Assembly: GCA_043821265.1 (NCBI GenBank)
Contig: JBDRCY010000015.1
Location: forward strand, 10,558 to 74,557
Reading direction: 5' to 3'
DNA: 64,000 nucleotides
Source of the DNA: Chloroflexota bacterium
GTDB lineage: Bacteria; Chloroflexota; Dehalococcoidia; Dehalococcoidales; JBDRCY01
Part shown: positions 3,661 through 36,388 of the stretch, in pieces
Layout of the letters: each line of letters opens with the position of its first letter
Numbering within the stretch: the first letter of the stretch is position 1
Made by a program: the position numbers and the translations under genes
The notes under the pieces: model-generated
Databases searched by the model: none
The model's input: the letters and a program-made list of their open reading frames with translations, nothing else
Told to the model about the DNA's origin: nothing

Positions 3661-6231
3661 ATGATTCCCGTTAAGCTAAGCATAAACAATTTCATGTGCT
3701 ATGCCGATAACGTGCCACCGCTCAGCTTCGATGGCATCCACACCGTCTGCATCTCCGGCGACAACGGCAACGGCAAGTCGGCGCTGATTGACGCCATGAC
3801 CTGGGCGCTATGGGGGAAAACCAGGACCAAGAGCGACGACAACCTGGTCCATGCCGGCAGCACGGAAATGGCGGCGGAGTTCGACTTCGCCGTAGGCGAG
3901 CAACTATACCGCATCATACGCAATTATGCCCGGCCCAAACAGCGGGGACGCTCGGGACAGAGCAGCCTGGGGCTGCTCATAGCCGATAGCAGCGGCTTCA
4001 AGGTAATCTCCGGCGACAGAATAAGCCAAACGCAACAGAAGGTCGTTGACATACTCCACATGGACTACCAGACCTTTATTAACAGCGCCTACCTGATGCA
4101 GGGCCATGCCGACGAGTTCACCAGCAAGAGCCCGGTGGAACGTAAAGAGGTGCTGGCCAATATCCTCCAGCTATCTCTCTATGACGAACTGGAGGAACGG
4201 GCTAAGGAGATGGCGAAACAGCAGGGCGAAGAGAACCTTAAGCTGGAGAGCGCCATCGAGGAAATCACTAACGAGCTGGCGCAAAAGCCGGCCTACGAAG
4301 CCGAATTTGAGCAACTAAAGGACGAGCTCACCCGGAGGGAAGAGGATATAAAGGAGCGGGAGTCCCGGCGCAACCGGCTGAAACAGGAAAAGGACACGCT
4401 GGAAGGTAAGAAAACACAACTGGCCGAGCTGGCGGAGCATACAGCGGATAGAGAGAGGGAGCTGGAGCGCTGGCAGGGACAGGCCAAACAGCACCGCTCC
4501 CGGCTCATAGAATACGAAGGTTTAATCAATCAACGCTCCAGCATAGAAGATGGCTACGCTCAATTCCTCGAGGCCAAGAAAGCAGATAATGAGTTCGACC
4601 AGAATTTTAGACAGGCTGCCGCCTTAAGCGAGCGCAAGCACCAGCTGGAGATGCTCATCACCCAGGCCAGCCAGGGACTGGTTAAAGAGCATGCCATCAC
4701 CCAAAACCGCATAACGGAGATGGAAGCCAGCTCACGGCAGCTACCCCAGCTTAAGGACCAGTCGCAGAAGCTCCGGGCGCAAATTGACCGGCTGGCCGCT
4801 GAGGCAGCGGAACTGGCTACGAAGAGGGGGACCAGCCAGGAGTTACGCAATAGAACCTATTATCTGAAGTCCCGCCAGGCCAAGCTGGAAGCGGAAATAA
4901 AGGAGATAGCGGAAAAGCTCGACCTCCTCTTAACCCAGAGCGATGCCAAGTGCCCCCTGTGCGAGACCGACCTGGGCACCGAGGAGAGAGAGCGCATCAG
5001 GGCCAAATACACCGCCCAGAAGGACGACAGTATTAATTCCCTGAAACAGAACCAGGAGGAACTGGCGCCAAAAAAGGGCGAGCTAGAGCTGCTAGAGAAG
5101 GAGATAAGCGAGCGGGAAACGAGGCTGAACCAGGCTCAGACCTCTGTCCAAAGGCAGGACAGTATCCTGAGTAAGGCCATCTCCGAGGCCGAAGCGGCCG
5201 CAGACAGTCTAACCGAGGCCCGGGAAACGCTGGCCCGGATTGAACAAGAGCTGGCCAGCAAGGACTTTGCCCTGGCCGAACAAACAGCCCTGAAGGAGCT
5301 GGAAGACGAGTTGGGCCATCTCGGCTATGACCCCGCGCAGCACGAGGTAGTGCGCCAGCGCCGGGCCGACCTCGAGCGATTCGAGGAGGCCCAACGCAAA
5401 CTGGACGAAGCCAGCCGGCTACTTAAGCAGGCAACCGAGGCGGCCCTCGGCGCCGAGAAGGCCGCCGGCGAGCTACAGCATACCCTGGAGGGCTACCGGC
5501 AGAAAAAGCAGACCCTGAGCCAGGAAGTCGCTTCACTCCCCCAGGTCCTCAGCGACCTGGCCCAGGCGGAAACGGAATATCAGGCCGTGGCCGGCCAGCA
5601 AAGGCAGTCCCAGGAAGCAATGTGGGGCATGAAGGCCAAACTGGAACGCTGCGCGGAGCTGGAGACCAAAAAGCGGGAGAAGACAAAACTGCTGAGCCAG
5701 GCCTCACGGGAGGAGAAAATCTACCGGGAACTGGTACAGGCCTTCGGTAAGAGGGGGGTACAGGCCCTGCTCATTGAAATGGCGCTCCCCGAAATAGAAA
5801 TTGAGGCCAATAGACTACTGGGACGCATGACCGATAATAGGATGCATGTCAAGATCGAGACCCAGCGAGAGACCAAGAAGGGGGACGTTATCGAGACGCT
5901 GGATATCAATATCTCCGATGAGCTGGGGACGCGCAACTACGAGATGTTCAGCGGCGGCGAGGCCTTCCGCATTAACTTTGCCATCCGCATCGCCCTCTCC
6001 AAGATGCTCGCCCGGCGGGCCGGGGCACCGCTGCCCACCCTCATCATCGACGAAGGCTTCGGCACTCAGGACTCAACCGGCATAGAGAAGCTAAAAGAGG
6101 CGATAAACTCCATACAGGACGACTTCAAGAAGATACTGGCCATTACCCATGTTGAGGAACTGAAAGATGCCTTCCCAGCCCGTATTAGCGTGGTCAAGAC
6201 CGCCACCGGCTCAACCCTGGCGATGGGCTAA
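3661..6231 (+). CDS. sbcC: SbcC/Rad50-family SMC-like ATPase with coiled coil and zinc hook
   Basis: N-terminal Walker A GDNGNGKSALIDAMTWALWGK. Long Glu/Lys/Gln/Leu-rich coiled-coil middle with a central CPLC (CxxC) hook. C-terminal signature FSGGE and Walker B LIIDEGFG. 856 aa. Confidence 0.8.
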   Translation: MIPVKLSINNFMCYADNVPPLSFDGIHTVCISGDNGNGKSALIDAMTWALWGKTRTKSDDNLVHAGSTEMAAEFDFAVGEQLYRIIRNYARPKQRGRSGQSSLGLLIADSSGFKVISGDRISQTQQKVVDILHMDYQTFINSAYLMQGHADEFTSKSPVERKEVLANILQLSLYDELEERAKEMAKQQGEENLKLESAIEEITNELAQKPAYEAEFEQLKDELTRREEDIKERESRRNRLKQEKDTLEGKKTQLAELAEHTADRERELERWQGQAKQHRSRLIEYEGLINQRSSIEDGYAQFLEAKKADNEFDQNFRQAAALSERKHQLEMLITQASQGLVKEHAITQNRITEMEASSRQLPQLKDQSQKLRAQIDRLAAEAAELATKRGTSQELRNRTYYLKSRQAKLEAEIKEIAEKLDLLLTQSDAKCPLCETDLGTEERERIRAKYTAQKDDSINSLKQNQEELAPKKGELELLEKEISERETRLNQAQTSVQRQDSILSKAISEAEAAADSLTEARETLARIEQELASKDFALAEQTALKELEDELGHLGYDPAQHEVVRQRRADLERFEEAQRKLDEASRLLKQATEAALGAEKAAGELQHTLEGYRQKKQTLSQEVASLPQVLSDLAQAETEYQAVAGQQRQSQEAMWGMKAKLERCAELETKKREKTKLLSQASREEKIYRELVQAFGKRGVQALLIEMALPEIEIEANRLLGRMTDNRMHVKIETQRETKKGDVIETLDINISDELGTRNYEMFSGGEAFRINFAIRIALSKMLARRAGAPLPTLIIDEGFGTQDSTGIEKLKEAINSIQDDFKKILAITHVEELKDAFPARISVVKTATGSTLAMG

Positions 6232-8070: not shown

Positions 8071-10917
8071 TTAGAGCGCAGTCACTACCCCGGGTAATAC
8101 CCTTTTGAGGTACTGCCCGGTAGTCGAAGCCTCCTGGCGGGCTATCTCCTCGGGGGTGCCGGTAGCCACCACATAGCCACCCTTGTCACCAGCCCCCGGC
8201 CCCAGGTCAATAATATAATCGGCATTCTTAATCACATCCAGGTGATGCTCAATAACGACCACCGTATTACCAGCGTCAACCAGGCGCTGCAACACCCCCA
8301 GTAGCGCCGCCACATCGCTGAAGGCCAGGCCGGTGGTAGGCTCATCGAGGATATATAACGTCCGGCCGGTGGAGCGCCGCGACAGCTCGGTGGCCAGCTT
8401 CACCCGCTGCGCCTCGCCGCCGGAGAGCGTCGGCGCCGGCTGACCCAGACGGATATAGCCCAGGCCAACGTCGTTTAAGGTTTTCAGCTTACCAGCCACC
8501 TTGGGGAAATGCTCGAAGAAGGCGAGGGCCTCCTCTACGGTCATATCCAGTATCTCGGCTATGTTCTTGCCCTTGAACCTGATCTCCAGGGCCTCACGGT
8601 TATAGCGCCTGCCCTGGCACACCTCGCAGGGGACGGTTACATCCGGCAGGAACTGCATCTCAATCTGAATAAAGCCCTCCCCACGGCAGGCCTCGCAGCG
8701 CCCGCCCTTGACATTGAACGAGAACCGGCCGGGGGCATAGCCCCTCATCCGGGACTCGGGGACCGTGGCCAGGAGCTCACGGATAGGGGTAAAGGTGCCG
8801 GTATAGGTGGCCGGGTTGCTGCGCGGGGTACGGCCGATGGGCGACTGGTCAATATTGATTACCTTGTCGATATGCTGGATGCCAATAATCTCGTCGCAGG
8901 CACCAGCCCTCTTACGAGAGCCATAGAGTATATAGGCCAGCTTCCGGTAGAAGACATCATCGATAAGGGTGCTCTTACCAGAACCGGAAACGCCGGTAAC
9001 ACCAACGAACCGGCCCAGGGGAATGTGGACATCTATATTCTTCAGGTTATTCTGCCGGGCCCCCTTTATTACCATCTCCTCACCCGAGCCCGGACGGCGC
9101 TCGGAGGGCACGGGTATGTGCTTGGCGCCGCCGAGGTACTGGCCGGTAATCGACTTCGGACAATCCATAATATCCGACATAGTCCCGGTGGCCACCACCC
9201 ACCCACCGTGCTCCCCGGCCCCGGGCCCCATATCGATAATATGGTCAGCCGCCCGCATCATGGCCTCGTCATGCTCCACCACCAGGATGGTATTACCCAG
9301 GTCCCTCAACCGCTTCATGGTATCAATAAGACGAGCATCGTCGGCCGGGTGCAGGCCCACCGTCGGCTCATCGCAGATATAGAGCACCCCCATAAGCCCG
9401 CTGCCTATCTGGGTAGCCAGGCGAATGCGCTGGGCCTCACCGCCGCTTAAGGTAGCCGAAGCCCGCTCCAGGGTAAGGTAGTCCAGGCCTACGTTCTCCA
9501 GGAAGGTGAGGCGGGCCCTGATTTCCTTCAGTATCTGGCTGGCAATCATCCGCTCGCGCTCGTTAAGTATGCCCGTCTTATCATCACTGGCGGCGTCCAC
9601 CCACTCTAGTGCCTGCACCACGGACAGGGTACTGATATCCATAATATTCCTGGCGTCGATAGTCACCGCCAGCGACTCCGGCTTAAGGCGCTTGCCCTCA
9701 CATACCGGGCACTCCCGGGACACCATATAGCGCTCCGTTACCGCCCGGGAATTATCCGACTCCGTCTCGCGGTACAACCGCTCCAGCCGCGGTATTATCC
9801 CCTCATAGCCGGTGAAATACCGCTTCTCCCGGCCAAAGCGATTGCGATGGTTCACCCAGTCCCCCTCCTCGCCGTAGAGCAATAGCTTTATCTGCTCCTC
9901 AGTCAGGCCCTTCACCGGCGTATCGAGCGAGAAGCCGTAGCGCCGGGCCAGGTGTTCGAACTGGTCAAAGTACCAGAACGACGTCTGATAGGGGCGGATT
10001 GCCCCCTGGGCTATGGACAGGTCCCTGTTGGGCATAATCAGCCCGGGGTCTATCTCCTGCTTGACCCCCAGGCCGGTACAGGCCGGGCAGGCGCCATGAG
10101 GGCTGTTGAAGCTGAAGGTACGGGGGGCCATCTCGCCCAGGCTGACGCCACAGTGCACACAGGCGAAGTGCTCCGAGAAAAGCAGCTCCTCGCCATCGAT
10201 AATGGACACCAGCACCACCCCGGCCCCCAGCTTGAGGGCCGTCTCCACCGAGTCGGCGATGCGGGACTGGCTGCCGCTCTGGCCCACTACCAGCCGGTCA
10301 ACCACCGCCGCGATGGAGTGCTTCTTTTTCTTATCCAGATGGAAGTCCTGGGACAGTTCGTAAATACGGCCATCGACCCGGACCCTCACATAGCCGGCCC
10401 GGCGCAGGTCCTCGAACACCGTCTGATACTCACCCTTGCGGTCCCTGACCAGCGGCGCCATAATCATGATACGGCTGCGCGAGGGGAGACGCCCGATGGC
10501 ATCGACAATCTGCTGCACCGTCTGCATGGCAATCTCGCGGCCGCACCGGGGACAGTGCGGGTGGCCCACCCGGGCAAAGAGCAGGCGCAGGTAATCGTAT
10601 ATCTCGGTTACGGTACCCACCGTAGACCGCGGGTTCTTACTGGTCCCCTTCTGGTCAATGGAGATAGCCGGACTCAATCCCTCGATATAATCGACCTCCG
10701 GCTTTTCCATCCGGCCCAGGAACTGGCGGGCATAGGCCGATAATGACTCCACATAGCGGCGTTGACCCTCGGCATAGATGGTATCGAAGGCCAGCGAGCT
10801 CTTGCCGGAGCCAGAAACACCGGTAATAACCACCAGCCTGTCCCGGGGGATGGTCACATCTATATTCTTGAGGTTATGCTCACGAGCCCCCTTGACGATT
10901 ATGGAATCCAGCGGCAT
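8071..10917 (-). CDS. uvrA: Excinuclease ABC subunit A
   Basis: 948 aa. N-terminus [50 protein letters not shown], two ABC modules (LSGGEAQR twice), zinc-finger Cys pairs. Confidence 0.97.
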
Positions 10918-26235: not shown

Positions 26236-26661
26236 TTATTTACTTACCGGCCTGAACTTATAGCAGTAGCGGGTAATCCCCTCCTGCTCGTAAAGCCGCC
26301 GGAAGACAACCTCGACGTCGGTGCCAATCTCAACCGCCTCCGGCTTGACCTCGCAATCGGTCAGCTGCGCCACTGTAAGCGGCCCTTCCTCCAGCTTGAC
26401 TATGCCCACCATAAAGGCACCGTCCATGCTCTGCTGGTCATCGAACTCACCGGGAGCGGCATAGCGGGCAATCATGGTATAGGTAAAGATTTTTCCCTTA
26501 CCACTCAGGGGAAAGTCCTCCATATTGTTTGAGTTGCACTCAGGACAAATGAGCCGTGCCGGGAAAATAATAGCGCCGCAGCCCTTGCATTTATTGCCGA
26601 CGAGCCGGTACCGGCGGTCTATTGTCGCCACATAAGCCGGTAATGTTACATAAGAAGTCAT
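26236..26661 (-). CDS. DUF35 Zn-ribbon/OB-fold protein (thiolase-associated)
   Basis: 141 aa. CKGCGAIIFPARLICPECNS zinc ribbon followed by an OB-fold-like region. Positioned after the thiolase and HMGCS-like genes. Confidence 0.75.
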   Translation of the reverse strand: MTSYVTLPAYVATIDRRYRLVGNKCKGCGAIIFPARLICPECNSNNMEDFPLSGKGKIFTYTMIARYAAPGEFDDQQSMDGAFMVGIVKLEEGPLTVAQLTDCEVKPEAVEIGTDVEVVFRRLYEQEGITRYCYKFRPVSK

Positions 26662-26671
26662 CTGTTCACCC

Positions 26672-27688
26672 CTAACTCCTGACGCTGCTCAGGAATCTCC
26701 TTTCCTTTAAATAGGTCACATAATCTATATATTCCTTGTCCTCAAGGTAGTCGGCCACCCTTTTAACCGGGGCGCTGCTGGATTTCTCTACTACCAGGCT
26801 CAGGGCATCGCTGCCCGGCCCGTAGGAGGCCAGCACTATTCTCTCCCCGACCCCGGCACTGTCCAGCACATGGGCCAGAGAGAACAGGGTGGAACAGGCC
26901 CCCAGGTTTCCCGTCTGGGGTGCCAGATTACCGGCGGCCAGCTGCTCCTTCTCGAACTTGAACCTGGCCACCGCCCGGGCCGGTGTGCGGGCATCGGGCG
27001 ACTGGATGATGACATGATTTATATCGGCAGGCTCCTTGCCTATCCTGGCCAGCAGGCCCTTGAGGGCCGCCGTAACCGACTCCTGGAAATACTGGACCCT
27101 TAGCTCATGGTCACGGGTGTACTGGTCCCAGGGCAGACGGAACCTCTCCCCATATGTCTCCGCGGCCACCGAGTAAGCACCCTCCAGCACCGCCAGTGGA
27201 CCATCGCTACCCACGATAAAGGCCGCCGCACCCGCCGCCAGGCCATGCTCCAGGTTGCGGTCGGGGGCCGCTATCGCGGCATCCGCAGCCACCGCCAGGG
27301 CATAACCGTCATCGCCGGCCCGAACCTTGTCACAGGCCGCCAGCAGGGCCGCCGTCCCCGACTTGGTACTGGCCGTAAAATCGGCCGTCCGCACATCGGA
27401 TTTAGCGCCCAGGGCCACCGCAATGGTCGGTGCCGACGGCTTATCGACATAGGGCCCGTAGGAATCGCCCAAATAAATAGCCCGAATATCTTCGGGCTTT
27501 ATACCAGACTGCGCAATGGCATTCTTGGCCGCCTCAACCGACATGGTGGCCACATCTTCATCGTATTTCGGTACCGCTTTCTCTTTCACACCGGGGGCAG
27601 CAAATGTCTCCCAGACCTTAAGGTACTCATCGGCCTTTATCCGGTACCGCGGCAAATACGCGCCATAACCCACTATGCCTACTGTCAT
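26672..27688 (-). CDS. HMG-CoA synthase-fold (archaeal-type) protein, apparently lacking the canonical catalytic residues
   Basis: 338 aa. The N-terminus VGIVGYGAYLPRYRI and the ..KSGTAAL.. block align by eye with archaeal HMGCS. The positions I expect to be GSES, ACK and HQP read GDSY, STK and IQSP. Confidence 0.6.
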   Translation of the reverse strand: MTVGIVGYGAYLPRYRIKADEYLKVWETFAAPGVKEKAVPKYDEDVATMSVEAAKNAIAQSGIKPEDIRAIYLGDSYGPYVDKPSAPTIAVALGAKSDVRTADFTASTKSGTAALLAACDKVRAGDDGYALAVAADAAIAAPDRNLEHGLAAGAAAFIVGSDGPLAVLEGAYSVAAETYGERFRLPWDQYTRDHELRVQYFQESVTAALKGLLARIGKEPADINHVIIQSPDARTPARAVARFKFEKEQLAAGNLAPQTGNLGACSTLFSLAHVLDSAGVGERIVLASYGPGSDALSLVVEKSSSAPVKRVADYLEDKEYIDYVTYLKERRFLSSVRS

Positions 27689-27713
27689 AATCTGTCTCTC
27701 CTAAGTCCGTTCG

Positions 27714-28883
27714 TTATATTTTGAGGATATGCACACAGGCCGTCCCGCCGGAGCCGCCCACATTATGCGCCAGGGCGACCTCCGCCCCCTTCACCTGCCG
27801 CTCCGGCTCCTGGGCCTCACCCCTCAGCTGATTGACCACCTCGTAGATCTGGCCGATGCCGGTGGTGCCGATAGGATGGCCTTTCGCCTTCAGGCCGCCG
27901 CTAACATTCACCGGGATGCGGCCGCCAATCTGAGTATGCCCCTCCGCAATAAGCCGGCCACCCTCACCCAGCTTGGCGAAGCCCAGGCTTTCGTAGCTGA
28001 TTAGCTCGGCAATGGTAAAGCAATCATGAACCTCGGCAAAGTCGATGTCCTCCGGCTTCATCCCGGCCTGCTCATAGGCCTGCCGGGCCGCCACCTCCGC
28101 CGCCATCAGCCGGGTCATATCCTTCCGGTCATGGATGGCCAGGTAATCGGTGCCCGACCCGGCCCCGGCTACCCATACCGGCTTATCCGTATAGTTCTGG
28201 GCCAGGTCACCGCGACAGAGGATTACCACCGACGCCCCATCGGTAACCGGGCAGAGGTCGAAAAGGCCGAAGGGATAGGCGAAATAACCGGCCGACATGT
28301 ACTGCTCCATGGTTACCTTGAAACGGAGCTGCGCCTTGGGGTTCTTGCTGGCATTAGCGTGGTTCTTGACCGATATCATCCCCAGCTGCTCCTTGGTGGT
28401 GCCATGCTCGTGCATGTGGCGCATGGCTACCATGGCGTAGATACTGGGGAAGTTGGTGCCCGCCAGTCTCTCCCATTCCACGTCTCCCGAGACCCCCAGC
28501 CAGAAGCGGTTTCTCTCCCGCGGCAGGTCGGTCATCTTCTCCACCCCACCGGCGATGACCACATCGCGCATCCCCGACTTTATCGCCATAACCGCCGCCC
28601 TGAAGGCAAAGGAGCCGGAGGCACAGGCATTTTCCACCCTGGTGGCCGGGATATAAGGGATATTGGCCTGTTCCACCATAAGGGCCGCCATGTTACCCAG
28701 CTGGTTGCCACCCGTCTGCAGGGTGCCGATATAGGCCTCCTGGATATCCTTGGGGTCTATCCCCTTATCCGCATTGGCCAGGGCATCTAAATAGGACTCG
28801 ATAAACAGGTCCTTAAACCCCTTGTCGGGGAAGGAGCCATACTTCGTCTGACCGACGCCAATCACTGCTACTTCTTTGTCCAT
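27714..28883 (-). CDS. Thiolase (acetyl-CoA acetyltransferase, SCP-x/archaeal type)
   Basis: 389 aa. Nucleophile motif VENACASGSFAF, C-terminal GGLKAKGHPIGTTG and HNVGGSGGTACVHIL. Confidence 0.87.
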   Translation of the reverse strand: MDKEVAVIGVGQTKYGSFPDKGFKDLFIESYLDALANADKGIDPKDIQEAYIGTLQTGGNQLGNMAALMVEQANIPYIPATRVENACASGSFAFRAAVMAIKSGMRDVVIAGGVEKMTDLPRERNRFWLGVSGDVEWERLAGTNFPSIYAMVAMRHMHEHGTTKEQLGMISVKNHANASKNPKAQLRFKVTMEQYMSAGYFAYPFGLFDLCPVTDGASVVILCRGDLAQNYTDKPVWVAGAGSGTDYLAIHDRKDMTRLMAAEVAARQAYEQAGMKPEDIDFAEVHDCFTIAELISYESLGFAKLGEGGRLIAEGHTQIGGRIPVNVSGGLKAKGHPIGTTGIGQIYEVVNQLRGEAQEPERQVKGAEVALAHNVGGSGGTACVHILKI

Positions 28884-29009: not shown

Positions 29010-29597
29010 CTAAAGCCCCCGCCACAGCTCCTTAACCCTGGCCCGCAACTCGCTGAGGTCACCATCGGTATTGATGAGCACATCGGCCCGCCTGGTCCGC
29101 TCCGCCGCCGGGAGCTGAGAGCGAATGCGGGCCAGCGAATCCTCCTCGGAGAGTCCGCTGCGTTCCTTAAGCCGCTTGAGCACGGTATCCTCGGCAGCTA
29201 CCGTAACCCAGACCTCATCCACTAGCGGCGTCCAGCCGCCCTCCAGTAAAAGGGGGGCCTCCAGCACCACCACCCTGTCCCCCCGCCGCCGGTGCTCATC
29301 GAGCTGGGCCGCTACCATATCGTACATCCTGGGGTGCATTATCCGGTTTAACCGTGACAGGGCCTCCGGGCTGGCAAAAACCATCTCCCCCAGCTTTCTA
29401 CGGTCAATATCCCCGCTGGGGGTAAGGACCTGCCGTCCGAAGGCAGCCACCACCTCCCGCCATATCTCAGAGCCGGACTCGAGGGCCTCGTGGCCCACTT
29501 TATCGGCATCTATGATAACCGCACCCAGCTCGGCCAGAAACTGCGCTACCGTGCTCTTGCCACTGCCAATACCACCGGTAAGGCCAATAACCTTCAT
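29010..29597 (-). CDS. coaE: Dephospho-CoA kinase
   Basis: MKVIGLTGGIGSGKST P-loop at the N-terminus, about 195 aa. ATG at 29597 is preferred over the GTG one codon upstream. Confidence 0.9.
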   Translation of the reverse strand: MKVIGLTGGIGSGKSTVAQFLAELGAVIIDADKVGHEALESGSEIWREVVAAFGRQVLTPSGDIDRRKLGEMVFASPEALSRLNRIMHPRMYDMVAAQLDEHRRRGDRVVVLEAPLLLEGGWTPLVDEVWVTVAAEDTVLKRLKERSGLSEEDSLARIRSQLPAAERTRRADVLINTDGDLSELRARVKELWRGL

Positions 29598-29617
29598 CAC
29601 TATTAATTCCCCTAACC

Positions 29618-29646
29618 AGTCTATCGGTAAGTAATTAAGCCGTCAA
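29618..29646 (-). promoter_or_regulatory. Candidate promoter for coaE (-35 TTGACG, 17-nt spacer, -10 TAGACT)
   Basis: The minus strand reads TTGACG-gcttaattacttaccga-TAGACT, about 20 nt upstream of the coaE start. Confidence 0.5.
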
Positions 29647-29711
29647 GGGAAAAAGGCTCACCATAACCCCCTTTTTATGGTGATTATGGTGGACCCCATC
29701 CCCTATATCCC

Positions 29712-29807
29712 CAACACGAAAAGACCAAGAAGGGCGGAGGCCGCCCTAAACTACTCAACACGAAAAACGAAAAACCAAGAAGGGCGGGTGCCTGCCCTGA
29801 ACTACCC
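29712..29807 (+). repeat. Two tandem copies of a roughly 45-52 nt unit (CAACACGAAAA..CCAAGAAGGGCGG-loop-CYGCCCTRAACTAC), each containing a GC hairpin
   Basis: Read directly. Hairpin 1 is GGGCGG-AGG-CCGCCC. Hairpin 2 is GGGCGG-GTGC-CTGCCC, which forms a G-U pair only when read on the plus strand. Confidence 0.7.
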
Positions 29808-29822
29808 GGCACGGAGAGTTCC

Positions 29823-29848
29823 AGAGAGGCTCCGCCTCTCTTTTTTTA
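29823..29848 (+). terminator. Rho-independent terminator-like hairpin (AGAGAGGC-TCC-GCCTCTCT followed by a run of about 7 T) with no upstream plus-strand CDS
   Basis: 8-bp GC-rich stem, 3-nt loop, T tract 29841-29847. All annotated genes upstream are on the minus strand. Confidence 0.55.
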
Positions 29849-29850
29849 TA

Positions 29851-29879
29851 TCCCCCTCTCCCTTCAAGGGAGAGGGGGA
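29851..29879. repeat. 29-nt near-perfect palindrome TCCCCCTCTCCCTT-C-AAGGGAGAGGGGGA followed by GGGGGTGAGGG
   Basis: Read directly as 14-nt arms. I have seen similar CCCTCTCCC/GGGAGAGGG + GGTGAGGG hairpin elements in intergenic regions of other bacterial genomes (recollection only). Confidence 0.7.
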
Positions 29880-29919
29880 CCAAGGGGGTGAGGGTATTTA
29901 GAACCTCAACACCCTATCC

Positions 29920-29948
29920 TGCAATCAACCATGTCCAAGTGATATAAT
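29920..29948 (+). promoter_or_regulatory. Candidate promoter for the radical SAM gene (extended -10 TGaTATAAT; weak -35 TGCAAT)
   Basis: TG at 29940-29941 and TATAAT at 29943-29948. GGAG at 29967-29970 and ATG at 29977. Confidence 0.5.
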
Positions 29949-29976
29949 TAGGTTAAGCAGCCAAGTGGAGATAGTA

Positions 29977-31017
29977 ATGCACAAGGCCTTGCTCTACGAA
30001 ACACTACCCGGCTTACGGGTCAGGTGCCATACCTGCCAGTGGCGCTGCCGCATAAACCCAGGGCATTTCGGTGTCTGCCGCATGTACCAGAACAGGGACG
30101 GCGTCCTCTATAACCTGAACTACGCCCAGGCATCATCGGTAGCCATTGACCCCATTGAAAAGAAGCCCCTATTCCACTTCTATCCCTCAAGTCAGGTCCT
30201 ATCCCTAGGCTCCTGGGGCTGCAACTTCCACTGCAAGCACTGCCAGAACTGGGAAATCTCCAGCGCCGATTCCGCCGCCGTGCTGGGCAGCGCCACCGAA
30301 GTCCCGCCCCAGGAAGCGATAAGGATGGCCCAAAGCCACCGCTGTGCCGGCATCGCCTGGACATACAATGAGCCCACCGTCTGGTTCGAATACACCCTGG
30401 ACTCAGCCAGACTGGCCAGGGAAAATAATCTGTATACCGTCTATGTCACCAATGGCTATATAACGCCCGAGGGACTGGATGCCATCGGCCCCTATCTTGA
30501 TGCCTGGTGCGTCGACGTGAAGGGCTTCTCCGACGCCCTCTACCGCAATCTGGCCGGGGTGGTCCACTGGCGGGGAATACTCAATGTCACCCGCCGCGCC
30601 AAGGACAAGTGGCATATGCATGTTGAAGTCGTCACCAATATCGTGCCCACCATGAACGATGACGACCAGCAGCTGGAGGCCATCGCCAGCTGGATACGGG
30701 ATAACCTGGGCGAGCTAACGCCGTGGCATGTCAGCCGGTTCTATCCTCACCACCGGATGAGTCACCTGCCGCCCACGCCGATAGCCACCCTGGAACATGC
30801 CTATGACATCGGCAAGAAGGCGGGGCTGAAATTCGTTTACGCCGGAAACGTCCCGGGGCATCAGCACGAAAACACCGCCTGTTACTCCTGCGACAGGCCG
30901 GTAGTACAGAGGTTCGGCTACCAGACGGCGGTAAGCGGTCTTAGAGGCTCGAAGTGCCGATCCTGCGGGGTCGAACTCAACTTCCGCACACACGGGTCGG
31001 AGAGGAGGCCAGCATGA
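29977..31017 (+). CDS. AmmeMemoRadiSam system radical SAM enzyme
   Basis: [14 protein letters not shown] (CxxxCxxC), N-terminal CHTCQWRC...GVC and C-terminal CYSC...CRSC Cys clusters. It is followed immediately (ATGA overlap) by the Memo/AMMECR1 gene. ATG 29977 with GGAG 6 nt upstream is preferred to GTG 29965. Confidence 0.8.
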
Positions 31018-32327
31018 TCAGGCGGCCGGTGGTATCGGGGCAGTTCTATCCCGCATCCGCTGCCCAACTAAGGGAAATGATTAAGCGCTTTACCGACGAG
31101 AAGGCGGCTAAAGAAGAGGTTATCGGCCTGCTGTCGCCCCATGCCGGATATGTCGCCTCCGGTCCGGTAGCCGGGGCCACCATATCCCGGGTCAAATTCA
31201 AGGACACCTTCATTATCCTGGGGCCCAGCCATACCGGGAGGGGAAAGCCCTTTAGCATCATGACGGAGGGTGCCTGGGAAACGCCCCTGGGCAAAGTAAG
31301 TATCGACACAGCAGTGGCCAAGAAGATACTGGCCGGTTCCCGTTACCTAGAGGATGACCCCTTAGCCCACCAGTATGAACACTCCATCGAGGTGCAAATA
31401 CCCTTCCTGCAGTACTTCAAAAAGGATGTCAAGATAGTGCCCATTGTCCTCGCCTACTCCGCTGGCTCCGCCTACAAGGAGATTGGCCGGGAAATGGCCC
31501 AGGTCATCAAGGGGCTGGATAAAGGGGTGGTAATCATCGCCAGCGGCGACATGACCCACTACGAACCCCAGAAGGCCGCCGAGAGCAAGGATAAAAAGGC
31601 CATCGAGGCCATGCTGAATCTGGACGAAGACGAGCTGCTAAAGAGGGTAGATAAGCTTAATATCTCGATGTGCGGCTACGCACCGGCGACCAGCCTGATT
31701 GCGGCGGCCAAGGAATTGGGCGCCGGGGAGACCGAGCTGGTCCGCTATCAGACCAGCGGTGACATTACCGGCGATTATTCCAGCGTGGTCGGTTATGCCG
31801 GCATCCTCATCAAGGCGGCCCGGATACACCCGCTGGCAGGGCTGGCTAAAGAAGCGGTGGAGACCTATATCGGGGAAGGCAACATCATTAAGCCAGCCGG
31901 GCTTACCCCCGAGATGCAGGACAGGGCGGGGGTATTTGTCTCCATCCACAAGTCCGGCGAGCTGCGGGGCTGCATCGGCACCTTCGAACCGACTAAAGAG
32001 AATGTGGCCGGGGAGATTGTAGCCAATGCCATCAGCTCGGCCACCAGGGACCCGCGCTTCCCCCCTGTTGCCCCCGATGAGCTTGACCACCTCGACTACA
32101 GCGTGGACGTCCTCAGCCCGCCCGAACCGGTAACCGACAAAGACCAGCTGGACCCCAAGAGGTACGGCGTCATAGTGGAGGCCGGGTGGCGGCGGGGCCT
32201 GCTCCTACCCGACCTCGAGGGCGTGGAGACAGCGGAACAGCAGATAGAAATCTGCCACATGAAGGCGGGAATAGCCCCCCACGAACCGGTAAAACTCTAC
32301 CGCTTCGAGGTAAAGAGATACAAATAA
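31014..32327 (+). CDS. Fusion protein: Memo-like (AmmeMemoRadiSam protein B) N-terminal domain plus AMMECR1 (protein A) C-terminal domain
   Basis: The start [13 protein letters not shown] is preceded by GGAGG at 31004-31008. Memo features are [21 protein letters not shown] and GDMTHY. After about residue 265, the AMMECR1 features are [20 protein letters not shown] and RDPRF.PV. 437 aa. Confidence 0.8.
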
Positions 32328-32424
32328 CCGCCGCCATAGATCAGACCAAAGGGATTTATTTCTAAAGCTTTAAGAAGGTGCTTTGAAGTAAAGAAATACA
32401 AATAACCGCCAAAGAGGGTGTTTT

Positions 32425-33774
32425 ATGGACATGTTCGAACGGCAATTCAAGGAGCAGATAACCAAGGGGGCGCCGCTGGCCACCCGCATGAGGCCCACCG
32501 ACCTCCATTCCTTCGTGGGGCAGGAGCATATAGTCGGTAAGGGACATGCCCTGAGAAAGGCCATCGAGACCGGGCAGCTGCCGTCGATTATCCTGTGGGG
32601 GCCGCCGGGCAGTGGCAAGACCACCCTGGCGGGAATCATCGCCAACACCACCAGCTCACACTTCAGCCAGGTAAGCGCCGTCAGCGCCGGTGTGGCCGAC
32701 CTCAGGCGGATAATCGAGGCCGCCAGGGAGCGCCGCAAACTGTACCAGCAGAGGACTATCCTGTTCATCGATGAGATTCACCGCTTTAACAAGGCCCAGC
32801 AGGATGCCATTCTGCCCTATGTCGAGGACAGCACGGTCACCCTGATTGGTGCCACCACGGAAAACCCCTCCTTCGAGGTCAACTCCCCCCTCCTCTCCCG
32901 CTGCCAGGTCTTCCCCCTGAAACCGCTCTCCGAGAACGAGCTACATACTCTCCTCATGAGGGCCTTAAAGGACACTCTAAGGGGCATCAGCAGCTTAAAC
33001 GTAGAGCTGGACCCGGATGCCGCCCGGCACCTCATCTCCATGTCCAACAGCGATGCCCGGAGCGCCCTAAACGCCCTGGAGATGGCCGCCCTGGCCACAC
33101 CGCCCGATGAAGAGGGAAAGCGCATTATCGCTCTCGCCACTATCGAAGACGTCTTCCAGCACCAGGCCCTGAAGTACGATAAGGACGGGGAGCAGCACTA
33201 CGACATAATCTCCGCCCTGCACAAATCGATGCGCGACTCCGACCCCGACGCCGCCCTCTACTGGCTGGGGAGGATGCTGGAGGCCGGCGAGGACCCGCTG
33301 TATATCGCCCGCCGCCTGGTCCGCTTCGCCTCCGAGGATGTCGGCATGGCCGACCCGCAGGCGCTGGTGGTCGTCATGGCCGCCCAGCAGGCCGTCCACT
33401 TTGTCGGCCTACCGGAGGGCAACCTGGCCCTGGCCGAGGCCGCTGTCTACCTGGCCACAGCGCCCAAGAGCAACTCCCTGTACCAGGCCTATTCCCGGGT
33501 CCAGCAGGAGATTAAACAGGGAAGTAACGAGCCGGTGCCGCTACACCTGCGCAACCCGGTAACGCCGTTAATGAAGGGGATGGGCTACGGCCAGGGCTAT
33601 AAGTATGCCCACGATTATCCCGACCATGTTGTCGCCCAGCAGCACCTCCCCCAGTCCCTTCAGGGCAGAAGCTACTACACCCCCACCGACCAGGGATACG
33701 AACAGCAGGTAAGAGCACGGCTCAAGGCCTGGCGGCAATTAAAAAATAGCACGCCTCGTAAAAAAGAAGGCTAA
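32425..33774 (+). CDS. rarA: Replication-associated recombination protein A (MgsA/RarA AAA+ ATPase)
   Basis: 449 aa. LATRMRPTDLHSFVGQEHIVG, Walker A GPPGSGKTTLA, LFIDEIHRFNKAQQD, HYD.ISA..KS.R.SD.DAALYW. Confidence 0.92.
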   Translation: MDMFERQFKEQITKGAPLATRMRPTDLHSFVGQEHIVGKGHALRKAIETGQLPSIILWGPPGSGKTTLAGIIANTTSSHFSQVSAVSAGVADLRRIIEAARERRKLYQQRTILFIDEIHRFNKAQQDAILPYVEDSTVTLIGATTENPSFEVNSPLLSRCQVFPLKPLSENELHTLLMRALKDTLRGISSLNVELDPDAARHLISMSNSDARSALNALEMAALATPPDEEGKRIIALATIEDVFQHQALKYDKDGEQHYDIISALHKSMRDSDPDAALYWLGRMLEAGEDPLYIARRLVRFASEDVGMADPQALVVVMAAQQAVHFVGLPEGNLALAEAAVYLATAPKSNSLYQAYSRVQQEIKQGSNEPVPLHLRNPVTPLMKGMGYGQGYKYAHDYPDHVVAQQHLPQSLQGRSYYTPTDQGYEQQVRARLKAWRQLKNSTPRKKEG

Positions 33775-34196: not shown

Positions 34197-36388
34197 TTGC
34201 TAACAGCACAATCTTTTCAATGCGACATCGCCGGCCATACCCTCAGTATACATACCGGCAAGCTGGCCAACCAGGCCAGTGGAGCGGTAACCGTTCAATA
34301 CGGGGATACCGTAGTAATGGTTACTGCCTGTATTTCCGGCGAACCACGGCCCGGGGTAGATTTTCTGCCCCTGACCGTTGACTACGAGGAACGGCTATAT
34401 GCCGCCGGTAAAATCCCCGGCGGCTTCATCCGGAGGGAGGGACGCCCCAGCCAGGAGGCAACCCTGGCGGCCCGGCTCGCCGACCGCCCCCTGCGCCCGT
34501 TACTACCCAAAATGTGGCGTAACGATATCCAGCTCGTCGTCACCGTCCTCTCCGCCGACCAGCTGAACGACCCCGATATCCTGGGTGTCATCGGCAGCTC
34601 AGCGGCCCTATCAATATCAGAGGTGCCGTTTGCCGGTCCGGTAGGCGCCACCCGCGTCGGCTATATCGACGACCAGCTGGTGCTCAATCCGACACTGGTG
34701 GATATGGAGAACAGCCAGCTTGACCTGGTCGTAGTCAGCACCCGGGATAGAATACCCATGGTGGAACTGGGCGCTAAAGAGGTGTCCGAAGAGCTGGTCA
34801 TCGAGGCCATAAGACTGGGCCATGAGGCCAACCAGGGCATTATCGGGATTCAAGAAGAGCTCCAGCAGGCCCTGGGCAAAGCCAAGCTAGAGGCCCCCTC
34901 CACCAGCCTGAACCCCGAAGCAGTCTCCGCCGTCTCCAGCTCCGTCGCCGACAGGTTGCCCGGGGCCCTGTACCAGGCCGACCGAGCACAGCGCCAGGAA
35001 GCGGTCTCCATCCTCAAGGGGGAAATCATCGAGGGCCTGAAAGAATCATTTACCAAAGAAGAAATAGTAGCCGCCTTCGACTCAATGGTCAGGTCGGAAA
35101 TACGGAATAATATCCTGAGTAAGTCACAGCGGATTAGTGGCCGTAGCCTGACCGATGTCAGGCCCCTCCACTGTGAAGTAGGGCTGCTACCCCGTACCCC
35201 GGCTCCGCCCTATTCTCCCGGGGCAAGACCCAGGTACTGACCATCACCACCCTGGGCTCTACCCGGCAGGAACAGCAACTCGACGGTCTGGGCATAGAGG
35301 ATAAAAAACGCTTCATCCACCACTACAATTTCCCGCCCTTCTCTACCGGCGAGGTGAAACGTATCGGCTCAACCAGCCGCCGGGAGATTGGACACGGCGC
35401 CCTGGCGGAACGGGCGCTGATACCGATTCTGCCCAAAGACGAGGACTTCCCCTATACCATTCGCCTGGTCTCCGAGGTCCTCAGCTCCAACGGCAGTACC
35501 TCCATGGCCAGTGTGTGCGCCGGCAGCCTGTCCCTGATGGACGCCGGGATACCGATAAAGAGCGCCGTAGCCGGTATAGCCATGGGCCTGATTACCGGTG
35601 AAGACGGTGACGCCCACGCCGTTATAACCGACCTCGAAGGGCTGGAGGATGCCTACGGCGATATGGACTTCAAGGTAGCCGGAACCAGCGAGGGCATCAC
35701 GGCAGCGCAGATGGACACCAAGCTTAAGGGCATAAAACCGGAAGTCCTGGCGGCGACCCTGGCCCAGGCCAAGGAAGCCCGCCTGCATATTCTTAACACC
35801 ATGAACCAGACCATCGCCCAGAGCCGGCCCGAGGTCAGCCAGTATGCCCCGCGCATGTATAAGATAATGATTAACCCGGATAAAATCGGCGCCGTAATCG
35901 GTACCGGCGGCAAGACCATCCGCTCCATCATCGAAGAGACCAAGACCACCATTGATATCGATAACAGCGGCATGGTGCTTATCGGCTCACCGGACAAGGA
36001 GGCCGCCGATAAGGCCATCGCCATCATAGAGGGCCTCACCAAGGAGGCAGCGGTCGGCGCCACCTACACCGGCAAAGTAACCCGCACCCTGAACTTCGGC
36101 GCCATGGTGGAAATCCTGCCCGGCAAGGAGGGCCTGGTCCATATTAGTGAGCTGGCCAATTACCGGGTACCCAAGGTGGAGGACGTGGTCAAGGTGGGCG
36201 ATGAGATTACCGTCAAGGTAACCGAGATTGATAATATGGGCCGGATAAACCTGTCACGACGGGTCCTGCTGGAGAAAGACTCACCAGCCCCCGCAGGGGA
36301 AGGGGAAACGCCATCCGCAAAGTACCCGTTCCGAAGCCAGCGCAACAGCCGTCCGCCCCAGCGCTTTAACCCCCGCCGGAACCAGTAA
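34197..36388 (+). pseudogene. pnp: Polynucleotide phosphorylase interrupted by an apparent 1-nt deletion near 35199/35200 (true pseudogene or assembly error)
   Basis: ORF 34197-35240 encodes the N-terminal RNase PH domain and ends in out-of-frame ..[18 protein letters not shown]. The next frame, from 35201, reads [19 protein letters not shown]...[10 protein letters not shown]...[12 protein letters not shown] and continues through the KH and S1 domains to 36388. The expected PRTHGSALF requires ACC-CAC-GGC where the sequence has ACC-C-C-GGC. Confidence 0.85.

Follow-up and report, generated by a model that had tools for sequence, protein, structure and literature searches.

The 64,000-nucleotide stretch of DNA analysed here (the window; positions 10,558 to 74,557 of contig JBDRCY010000015.1, assembly GCA_043821265.1) carries, in a Dehalococcoidia-like Chloroflexota genome, a bona fide cytoplasmic two-gene AmmeMemoRadiSam operon. 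The first gene encodes a radical S-adenosylmethionine (SAM) enzyme, and the second encodes a single polypeptide in which the Memo protein of the system (protein B) runs straight into AMMECR1 (protein A) through a linker of about 4–10 residues. Compared with the system at large, proteins A and B are here one polypeptide, so that two genes are found instead of three. A preliminary description of the DNA had proposed membership in this system. That proposal is sustained by three system models, all of which are passed, and by the arrangement of the genes, which are adjacent, co-oriented and joined by an ATGA overlap. The radical SAM open reading frame (ORF) and the coupled 437-residue ORF both lie exactly where they had been placed. 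The identity of the operon, combined with the mechanism that we infer for it below, provides, with good confidence, the best overall explanation of the locus.

Profile searches leave little latitude in the assignment of either protein. The 346-residue product of the first gene matches TIGR04337 over profile positions 7–330 of 349 (296.3 bits, cut-off 220, E = 2.5e-88), and its residues 81–236 match the Pfam family Radical_SAM, PF04055 (62.2 bits vs 29.5). The product of the second gene matches the full-length profile of TIGR04336, the protein B model, at residues 3–266 (310 bits, cut-off 26, E = 1.2e-92), the MEMO1 family model NF001987 at residues 1–267 (305.8 bits vs 295), and the protein A model TIGR04335 at residues 274–436 (139.2 bits, cut-off 99, E = 8.7e-41, profile 3–175 of 175). 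Together with the Pfam matches given in Table 1, these scores bear out the predicted succession of an N-terminal Memo and a C-terminal AMMECR1 domain. Neither of the results that would have contradicted the preliminary description was obtained: both halves match their families, and the radical SAM protein falls in the expected subfamily, not among the true PFL-activating enzymes. Every Memo and AMMECR1 motif quoted in the preliminary description, including RDPRFPPV, was found.

The AlphaFold2 model of the fusion, built on a 22-sequence alignment, has a mean predicted local distance difference test score (pLDDT) of 93.7 and a predicted template modelling score (pTM) of 0.73. At the junction the last Memo strand (residues 258–268) is followed, after about 4 residues, by the first AMMECR1 helix (residues 273–288), and the chain through this region is continuous and confidently modelled. 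A Foldseek search with the model retrieved human MEMO1 with a TM-score of 0.82 and the archaeal AMMECR1 structures 1VAJ and 1ZQ7 with TM-scores of 0.63–0.73; no solved structure of a fused Memo-AMMECR1 protein was found in that search. The archaeal proteins, PH0010 (1VAJ) and MM0484 (1ZQ7), share with the window's protein the fold and the LRGCIG and DPRFPP motifs, but they are standalone proteins of about 200 residues. Human MEMO1 (3BCZ, 7KQ8, 7L5C) likewise has the fold of the Memo domain and conserves the equivalents of its metal ligands, although identity is only about 21% and the human protein has neither an AMMECR1 fusion nor a radical SAM partner. The closest kin of the window's Memo domain are standalone prokaryotic Memo proteins (NF001987), which are unfused.

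The functional residues of all three components are intact. Residues H49, H81 and C244 of human MEMO1 bind Fe or Cu, as established by crystallography and mutagenesis (PMC11081632). Profile alignment with 3bcz and 7kq8 places H43, H73 and C220 of the window's protein at these positions, and the three residues are invariant in 146/146, 146/146 and 145/146 Memo homologues, respectively. The Memo domain bears a resemblance to the class III extradiol dioxygenases that falls short of recognition: the LigB model PF02900 scores 25.3 bits against the fusion, below its gathering score of 26.3, and the third ligand is Cys, not Glu. Human MEMO1, which also has Cys in place of the dioxygenase Glu ligand, displays no dioxygenase activity (PMC11081632). 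In the AMMECR1 domain, the D-x-R-F motif is, like LRGCIG, invariant across 22 diverse fusions, and DPRFPP is present.

The radical SAM motif and the additional N- and C-terminal cysteine clusters that had been noticed in the first protein are all present (C82/86/89, C17/20/24/34 and C302/305/327/330), and the cluster cysteines are kept in 10 of 10 aligned family members with identities of 34–72%. The central motif, CNFHCKHC, aligns with the cluster motif GCLMRCLYCHN of pyruvate formate-lyase-activating enzyme (PFL-AE). The N-terminal four-cysteine cluster probably binds an auxiliary Fe-S centre or Zn, and the spacing of the C-terminal cysteines resembles that of a zinc ribbon or rubredoxin. 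As judged from its sequence, then, the enzyme is PFL-activase-like, with two extra four-cysteine modules. Because 12 of the 12 cluster cysteines listed, the Memo ligands and the AMMECR1 cysteine are all conserved, and because the model of the fusion is confident, the operon is taken to encode a working system rather than a relic.

Fusion of the two domains is common. A search of 5.8 billion cluster representatives (90% identity) gave 7432 matches at E ≤ 1e-10, and the best 120 of these, all from Dehalococcoidales or Chloroflexota, are without exception fused proteins of 435–464 residues that, apart from the window's own, are 70–75% identical to it. A wider search over 1.84 billion 50%-identity representatives gave 18,134 matches at E ≤ 1e-3. 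Among the best 150 of these, which answer the call for a survey of fusion frequency, 82 hold both domains (81 in the order B-A and 1 in the order A-B) and 68 hold Memo only. A third set was drawn from GTDB species-representative genomes and comprised their 80 best-scoring loci. Here fused genes occur in Dehalococcoidia (L002–L005, 60–71% identity) and also in WOR-3, a delta-proteobacterium, Omnitrophota (two loci), Acidobacteriota, a Beckwithbacterium of the candidate phyla radiation (CPR), Elusimicrobia and Nitrospiraceae. Immediately upstream of the fusion, all the Dehalococcoidia loci have the radical SAM gene, as do L053, L055 and L070.

When 146 Memo domains are placed in a neighbour-joining tree, the fusions fall into two groups. 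The window's protein and three others (P0121, P0122 and P0123) form a small clade of fusions lying within the standalone Memo proteins (42–62% identity), and this clade is split from a large fused clade (77 representatives, about 36% identical to the window) in 100 of 100 bootstraps. The most economical reading of the Memo-domain tree is that the Dehalococcoidia fusion arose independently. Proteins of the large clade are about 470–540 residues long and come from Omnitrophota, Acidobacteriota, Nitrospirota, Elusimicrobia, WOR-3, CPR and delta-proteobacteria. They resemble the window's protein in their B-A order and, at the three loci just named, in the radical SAM gene upstream; they differ from it in sequence (33–40% identity), in linkers of 20–60 residues and, for the most part, in an N-terminal leader that is considered below. 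The finding of Memo and AMMECR1 fused in 82 of 150 representatives, in two well-separated clades, argues that they act as a single functional unit. The preliminary description had drawn the same conclusion by the Rosetta-stone argument; the argument is sound, but it is an old one, since the fusion was already reported in 2007 (PMC2034487).

How such a unit might work can be proposed only tentatively. The mechanism that we favour, which takes the largest single share of our belief while falling short of an even chance, has the two proteins acting together as a single machine for oxygen-independent modification. SAM would be cleaved reductively by the radical SAM enzyme, and a substrate bound to the Memo-AMMECR1 module would lose a hydrogen to the 5'-deoxyadenosyl radical so formed. 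Follow-up chemistry on this substrate would then fall to two sites of the fusion, the Fe (or Cu/Zn) site in Memo and the pocket of AMMECR1 that contains the LRGCIG cysteine. Fusion would set a 1:1 stoichiometry and bring the two pockets close together. An oxygen-independent chemistry is favoured because a radical SAM partner implies it, because AMMECR1 is linked to anaerobes and because MEMO1 lacks dioxygenase activity. The published predictions suggest an RNA or nucleotide base, or an isoprenoid-type lipid, as candidate substrates. Burroughs and colleagues reportedly tied Memo to isoprenoid modification in 2019. Modification of RNA bases was predicted for the AMMECR1/radical SAM neighbourhood (PMC2034487). 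The link to anaerobes is quantitative: AMMECR1 is the Pfam family most strongly predictive of an anaerobic habit, being present in 3.4% of aerobes vs 50.7% of anaerobes (PMC13386939).

Several observations weigh against this mechanism. Proteins are the substrates of all the nearest characterised kin of the radical SAM enzyme. Of about 68 loci with the closest standalone Memo genes, just 1 has a radical SAM or AMMECR1 gene within 4 kb. Full-text searches of the literature yielded no experimental assignment of function to any member of the system; the preliminary description had held function and substrate to be unknown, and no functional study was found that would alter that statement.

A further difficulty comes from the large fused clade. 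Signal-peptide-like leaders were called by a simple heuristic of hydrophobicity and lipobox, which required the N terminus to be extended by 17 residues or more and to have a hydrophobic core. By this measure a leader is present in 60 of the 76 fusions of the large clade (50%-identity representatives; P0139–P0270), with a lipobox-like Cys in at least 26; the 68 standalone Memo proteins and the 5 Dehalococcoidia-type fusions all lack one. Fused genes at six of the genomic loci (L047, L053, L054, L055, L060 and L070) are likewise leader-bearing. The adjacent radical SAM proteins seem to be leaderless at L070 and L053, and also at L055 if translation starts at MYFDKL. Most fused B-A proteins, as read from their N termini, thus look exported, whereas the window's protein is cytoplasmic. 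Where the fusion bears a leader and its radical SAM neighbour does not, a stable cytoplasmic complex or an RNA substrate is hard to reconcile with the arrangement.

That a cytoplasmic radical SAM enzyme should have an exported partner is in itself unexpected. At the Omnitrophota locus L055 the leader-bearing fusion is directly followed by a gene (5393–6052) for a membrane protein that, judged by eye from a CxxC in its first hydrophobic segment, is DsbD/CcdA-like. Such a neighbour, if recurrent, would fit a periplasmic protein whose cysteines are kept reduced.

The main rival to the modification machine, which we consider rather unlikely, assigns the radical SAM enzyme the role of a maturase or activase. 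It would modify Memo-AMMECR1 itself, by a post-translational modification or a protein radical, and the matured fusion would be the working enzyme. The LRGCIG cysteine, C220 and the near-invariant glycine of VVGY are examples of possible sites. By analogy, PFL-AE acts on pyruvate formate-lyase (PFL), and anaerobic sulfatase-maturing enzyme would provide the parallel of a modification made on sulfatases before export. A transient step of this kind fits the leaders of the large clade, which are borne by the fusions and seemingly not by the radical SAM proteins. It also fits the pedigree of the enzyme: each characterised family to which similarity is detectable, at E values of 1e-12 to 1e-5, is a glycyl-radical-enzyme activase, and the nearest solved relative by sequence, and best match in the PDB, is PFL-AE (E = 2e-6), although the similarity, over residues 81–251, is weak. 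Relatives of the radical SAM clade have, in addition, been placed in predicted peptide-processing systems (PMC7159879).

The same comparisons supply the case against a maturase. Like PFL-AE and the other activases, the window's enzyme has a compact radical SAM core with CX3CX2C close to its start; unlike them, it has extra four-cysteine modules, and no glycyl-radical enzyme is encoded among the neighbouring genes in the window. The activase models are all far from being satisfied, with 43.2 bits vs 231.75 for TIGR02493 (PFLA), 43.8 vs 174.35 for TIGR02494 (PFLE_PFLC) and the remaining models also well under their cut-offs. The DGxGxR motif with which activases bind peptide is absent, and alignment shows an invariant DPIEKKP in the corresponding region. 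The leader predictions that speak for a maturase depend on the simple heuristic described above. This radical SAM enzyme, moreover, is not known from eukaryotes, which nevertheless retain Memo and AMMECR1, a distribution that counts against a dedicated maturase.

The VVGY segment deserves separate mention. It is situated at the end of the Memo domain (V258–Y261, 31785–31796), and in 146 prokaryotic homologues its Gly is found in 142 and its Tyr in 144; human MEMO1 reads VSY where prokaryotic Memo reads VGY. The extended form [R/S/Q]-V-V-G-Y-[AG] lies near the glycyl-radical fingerprint R-[IVT]-[CSA]-G-Y, as does RVVGY itself, which occurs in 37 of the 146, and this likeness would speak for activation of the fusion by its neighbour. 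In the AlphaFold2 model, however, G260 is located in the middle of the long β-strand formed by residues 258–268. The position of VVGY within a strand therefore weighs against a glycyl-radical loop, and the glycyl-radical reading of the segment, once entertained, is weakened both by this predicted context and by the missing activase DGxGxR motif.

A more far-reaching version of maturation can be imagined, and must be called decidedly improbable. An invariant Cys or Gly would receive a radical or covalent modification from a dedicated maturase; in most bacteria the modification would take place in the cytoplasm and be followed by export as a lipoprotein, and in the Dehalococcoidia an independently evolved compact fusion would be kept in the cytoplasm. 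If this were true, the system would represent a new class of radically activated metalloenzyme, and the Memo and AMMECR1 families would at last be given a molecular function.

It is improbable, though worth weighing, that the three activities instead form a sequential pathway that modifies an isoprenoid-derived molecule at the membrane. Such a pathway would account both for the linkage of Memo to mevalonate genes in archaea and for the exported bacterial forms. Standalone archaeal Memo genes are found in eno-rpsB-Memo-mvk-ipk-idi2 clusters; in 6–11 loci they lie directly between rpsB and the genes for mevalonate kinase (mvk), isopentenyl phosphate kinase (ipk) and type 2 IPP isomerase (idi2). 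In the window itself, genes for an archaeal-type HMG-CoA synthase (NF003274, 292 bits vs 244), a thiolase-domain protein and a DUF35-like OB/zinc-ribbon protein occupy 26236–28883 on the minus strand, 1.1–3.7 kb upstream of the operon; the trio is an archaeal-type mevalonate entry module. The trio is, however, embedded in a gene cluster for β-oxidation and methylmalonyl-CoA (acyl-CoA metabolism), and the adjacency of HMG-CoA synthase and thiolase is not kept in L001–L005. The adjacency may therefore be coincidental. Neither protein of the window's operon, furthermore, has a membrane segment.

Two further explanations can be given a negligible chance. That the radical SAM gene is an ordinary activase of PFL or another glycyl-radical enzyme, merely adjoining the fusion, is suggested by the weak similarity to PFL-AE and is effectively refuted by the profile scores (TIGR04337 passed, activase models failed widely) and by conservation of the extra cysteine modules and of the overlapping operon with the fusion. 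That the fusion is a frameshift or assembly error joining two genes gains some colour from one apparent indel in the same contig, in pnp near 35195, but is refuted by recurrence and by the confident modelled junction: the fused ORF occurs, at lengths of 435–445 residues, in at least 120 independent 90%-identity clusters from NCBI, JGI, ENA and Logan assemblies, and in 4 GTDB species genomes, and this shared architecture shows that it is not an assembly artefact.

The locus is not new. The system is known and the locus is annotated as part of it; fusions of this kind are common and were described long ago, and thousands of fused homologues and equivalent loci exist. NCBI holds an identical radical SAM protein, MFH1775477.1, named 'AmmeMemoRadiSam system radical SAM enzyme', and an identical fusion protein, MFH1775478.1, on the same 81.6-kb contig record of a Chloroflexota metagenome-assembled genome. 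The latter is named by the annotation pipeline PGAP 'AmmeMemoRadiSam system protein B' alone, a name that ignores the C-terminal 160 residues, which pass the protein A model; JGI gives several homologues the double name 'protein B/protein A'. The neighbourhood of AMMECR1, radical SAM and dioxygenase-like genes, and the gene fusion, were described by Balaji and Aravind in 2007 (PMC2034487), and the same group later referred to 'recently-described Memo-Ammecr1 systems' (PMC7159879). AMMECR1 figures in a list of top-priority uncharacterised archaeal proteins (PMC6393860).

What the present analysis contributes is modest: the probable independent origin of a compact cytoplasmic fusion in the Dehalococcoidia, and its difference from the majority clade, which looks exported. 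The Memo and AMMECR1 families are ancient and include human disease genes, and the system as a whole is a genuine open problem to which this locus adds little. The contrast with the exported clade limits where, and on what, the system can act, and is of more interest than the window's locus itself. The leaderless two-gene version, with its 1:1 fusion, nevertheless provides a handy construct for anaerobic co-expression and for modelling of the complex.

Table 1. Positions, in window coordinates, of the two genes, their domains and motifs, and the associated expression signals
Feature	Position	Strand	Remarks
Extended -10 promoter-like element TGATATAAT	29940..29948	+	29 nucleotides upstream of the radical SAM start; consensus match only
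Shine-Dalgarno-like GGAG	29968..29971	+	5 nucleotides ahead of the ATG at 29977; read directly from the sequence
Radical SAM ORF	29977..31017	+	346 residues; position as in the preliminary description
N-terminal four-Cys cluster, C17-X2-C20-X3-C24-X9-C34	30025..30078	+	Motif, alignment
Canonical [4Fe-4S] motif, C82-X3-C86-X2-C89 (CNFHCKHC)	30220..30243	+	Motif, alignment
C-terminal module, C302-X2-C305-X21-C327-X2-C330	30880..30966	+	Motif, alignment
Strong Shine-Dalgarno sequence of the fusion gene, GGAGAGGAGG	30999..31008	+	Within the 3' end of the radical SAM gene; read directly
ATGA start/stop overlap	31014..31017	+	Fusion ATG (31014-31016) over radical SAM TGA (31015-31017); translational coupling
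Fusion ORF (Memo-AMMECR1, protein B-A)	31014..32327	+	437 residues; no signal peptide
Memo domain	31026..31805	+	Residues 5-264; PF01875, 261.5 bits vs 27, E = 9e-78
AMMECR1 domain	31842..32318	+	Residues 277-435; PF01871, 165.5 bits vs 25, E = 1e-48
LRGCIG motif	31962-31979	+	Residues 317-322; L317, R318, G319, C320, I321 and G322 invariant in 22 diverse fusions

The start of the radical SAM gene at 29977 is backed by the N termini of homologues, which read MHEALLYEKL or MREALLYEKL, and an overlap of 4 or 8 nucleotides between the two ORFs is kept in 6 of 6 Dehalococcoidia loci (L001–L005 among them). The automatic promoter scan overlooked the element TGATATAAT because its -35 hexamer is poor. 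A scan of 29400–32600 against Rfam at E ≤ 1, in search of a riboswitch or leader RNA, gave zero matches.

The spacer between the operon and the divergent coaE gene contains unusually many hairpins (29650–29880). A hairpin of the form AAAxACCAAGAAGGGCGG...CCGCCCT is present in two copies, at 29720–29747 and 29770–29798, and nowhere else in the window. The plus strand has, at 29823–29851, a terminator-like hairpin with a T-run behind it, and a perfect palindrome with 14-bp arms lies at 29851–29879. It is possible that these hairpins represent a small RNA or a repeat element.

Clustering of the neighbours at 81 loci revealed no universal partner, but only lineage synteny: rplI-dnaB in Nitrospirota, cysS in Desulfobulbaceae, and eno-rpsB/mvk-ipk-idi2 in archaea. 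The window's operon is surrounded by housekeeping genes, including rpsO, pnp, dapB, asd, dapA, purA, truB, infB and nusA. One of these, pnp (34197–36388), is split into 34197..35240 and 35354..36388 by a single frameshift near 35190–35200, at a C run, and the adjacent frame restores the reading. The break is probably an assembly or sequencing indel; otherwise the gene is a real pseudogene.

In the Dehalococcoidia the recurrent gene order is coaE, the radical SAM-fusion pair, 0–4 variable genes, and rarA. An ORF of 175–230 residues between the fusion and rarA in L001, L004 and L005, with no Pfam or NCBIfam match, was considered as a fourth gene of the system and is not counted in it: it stays beside rarA despite insertions, and it is absent from the window. 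At that place the window has a 31-nucleotide direct repeat (90% identity) at 32302–32332 and 32380–32410, the second copy lying 78 nucleotides downstream of the first. The repeat consists of the last 26 nucleotides of the fusion ORF, the stop codon and a few bases more, and its second copy, which reads FEVKKYK*, lies just before the start of rarA at 32425. Occurring as it does where relatives have the 175–230-residue ORF, the repeat may be the scar of a deletion or rearrangement.

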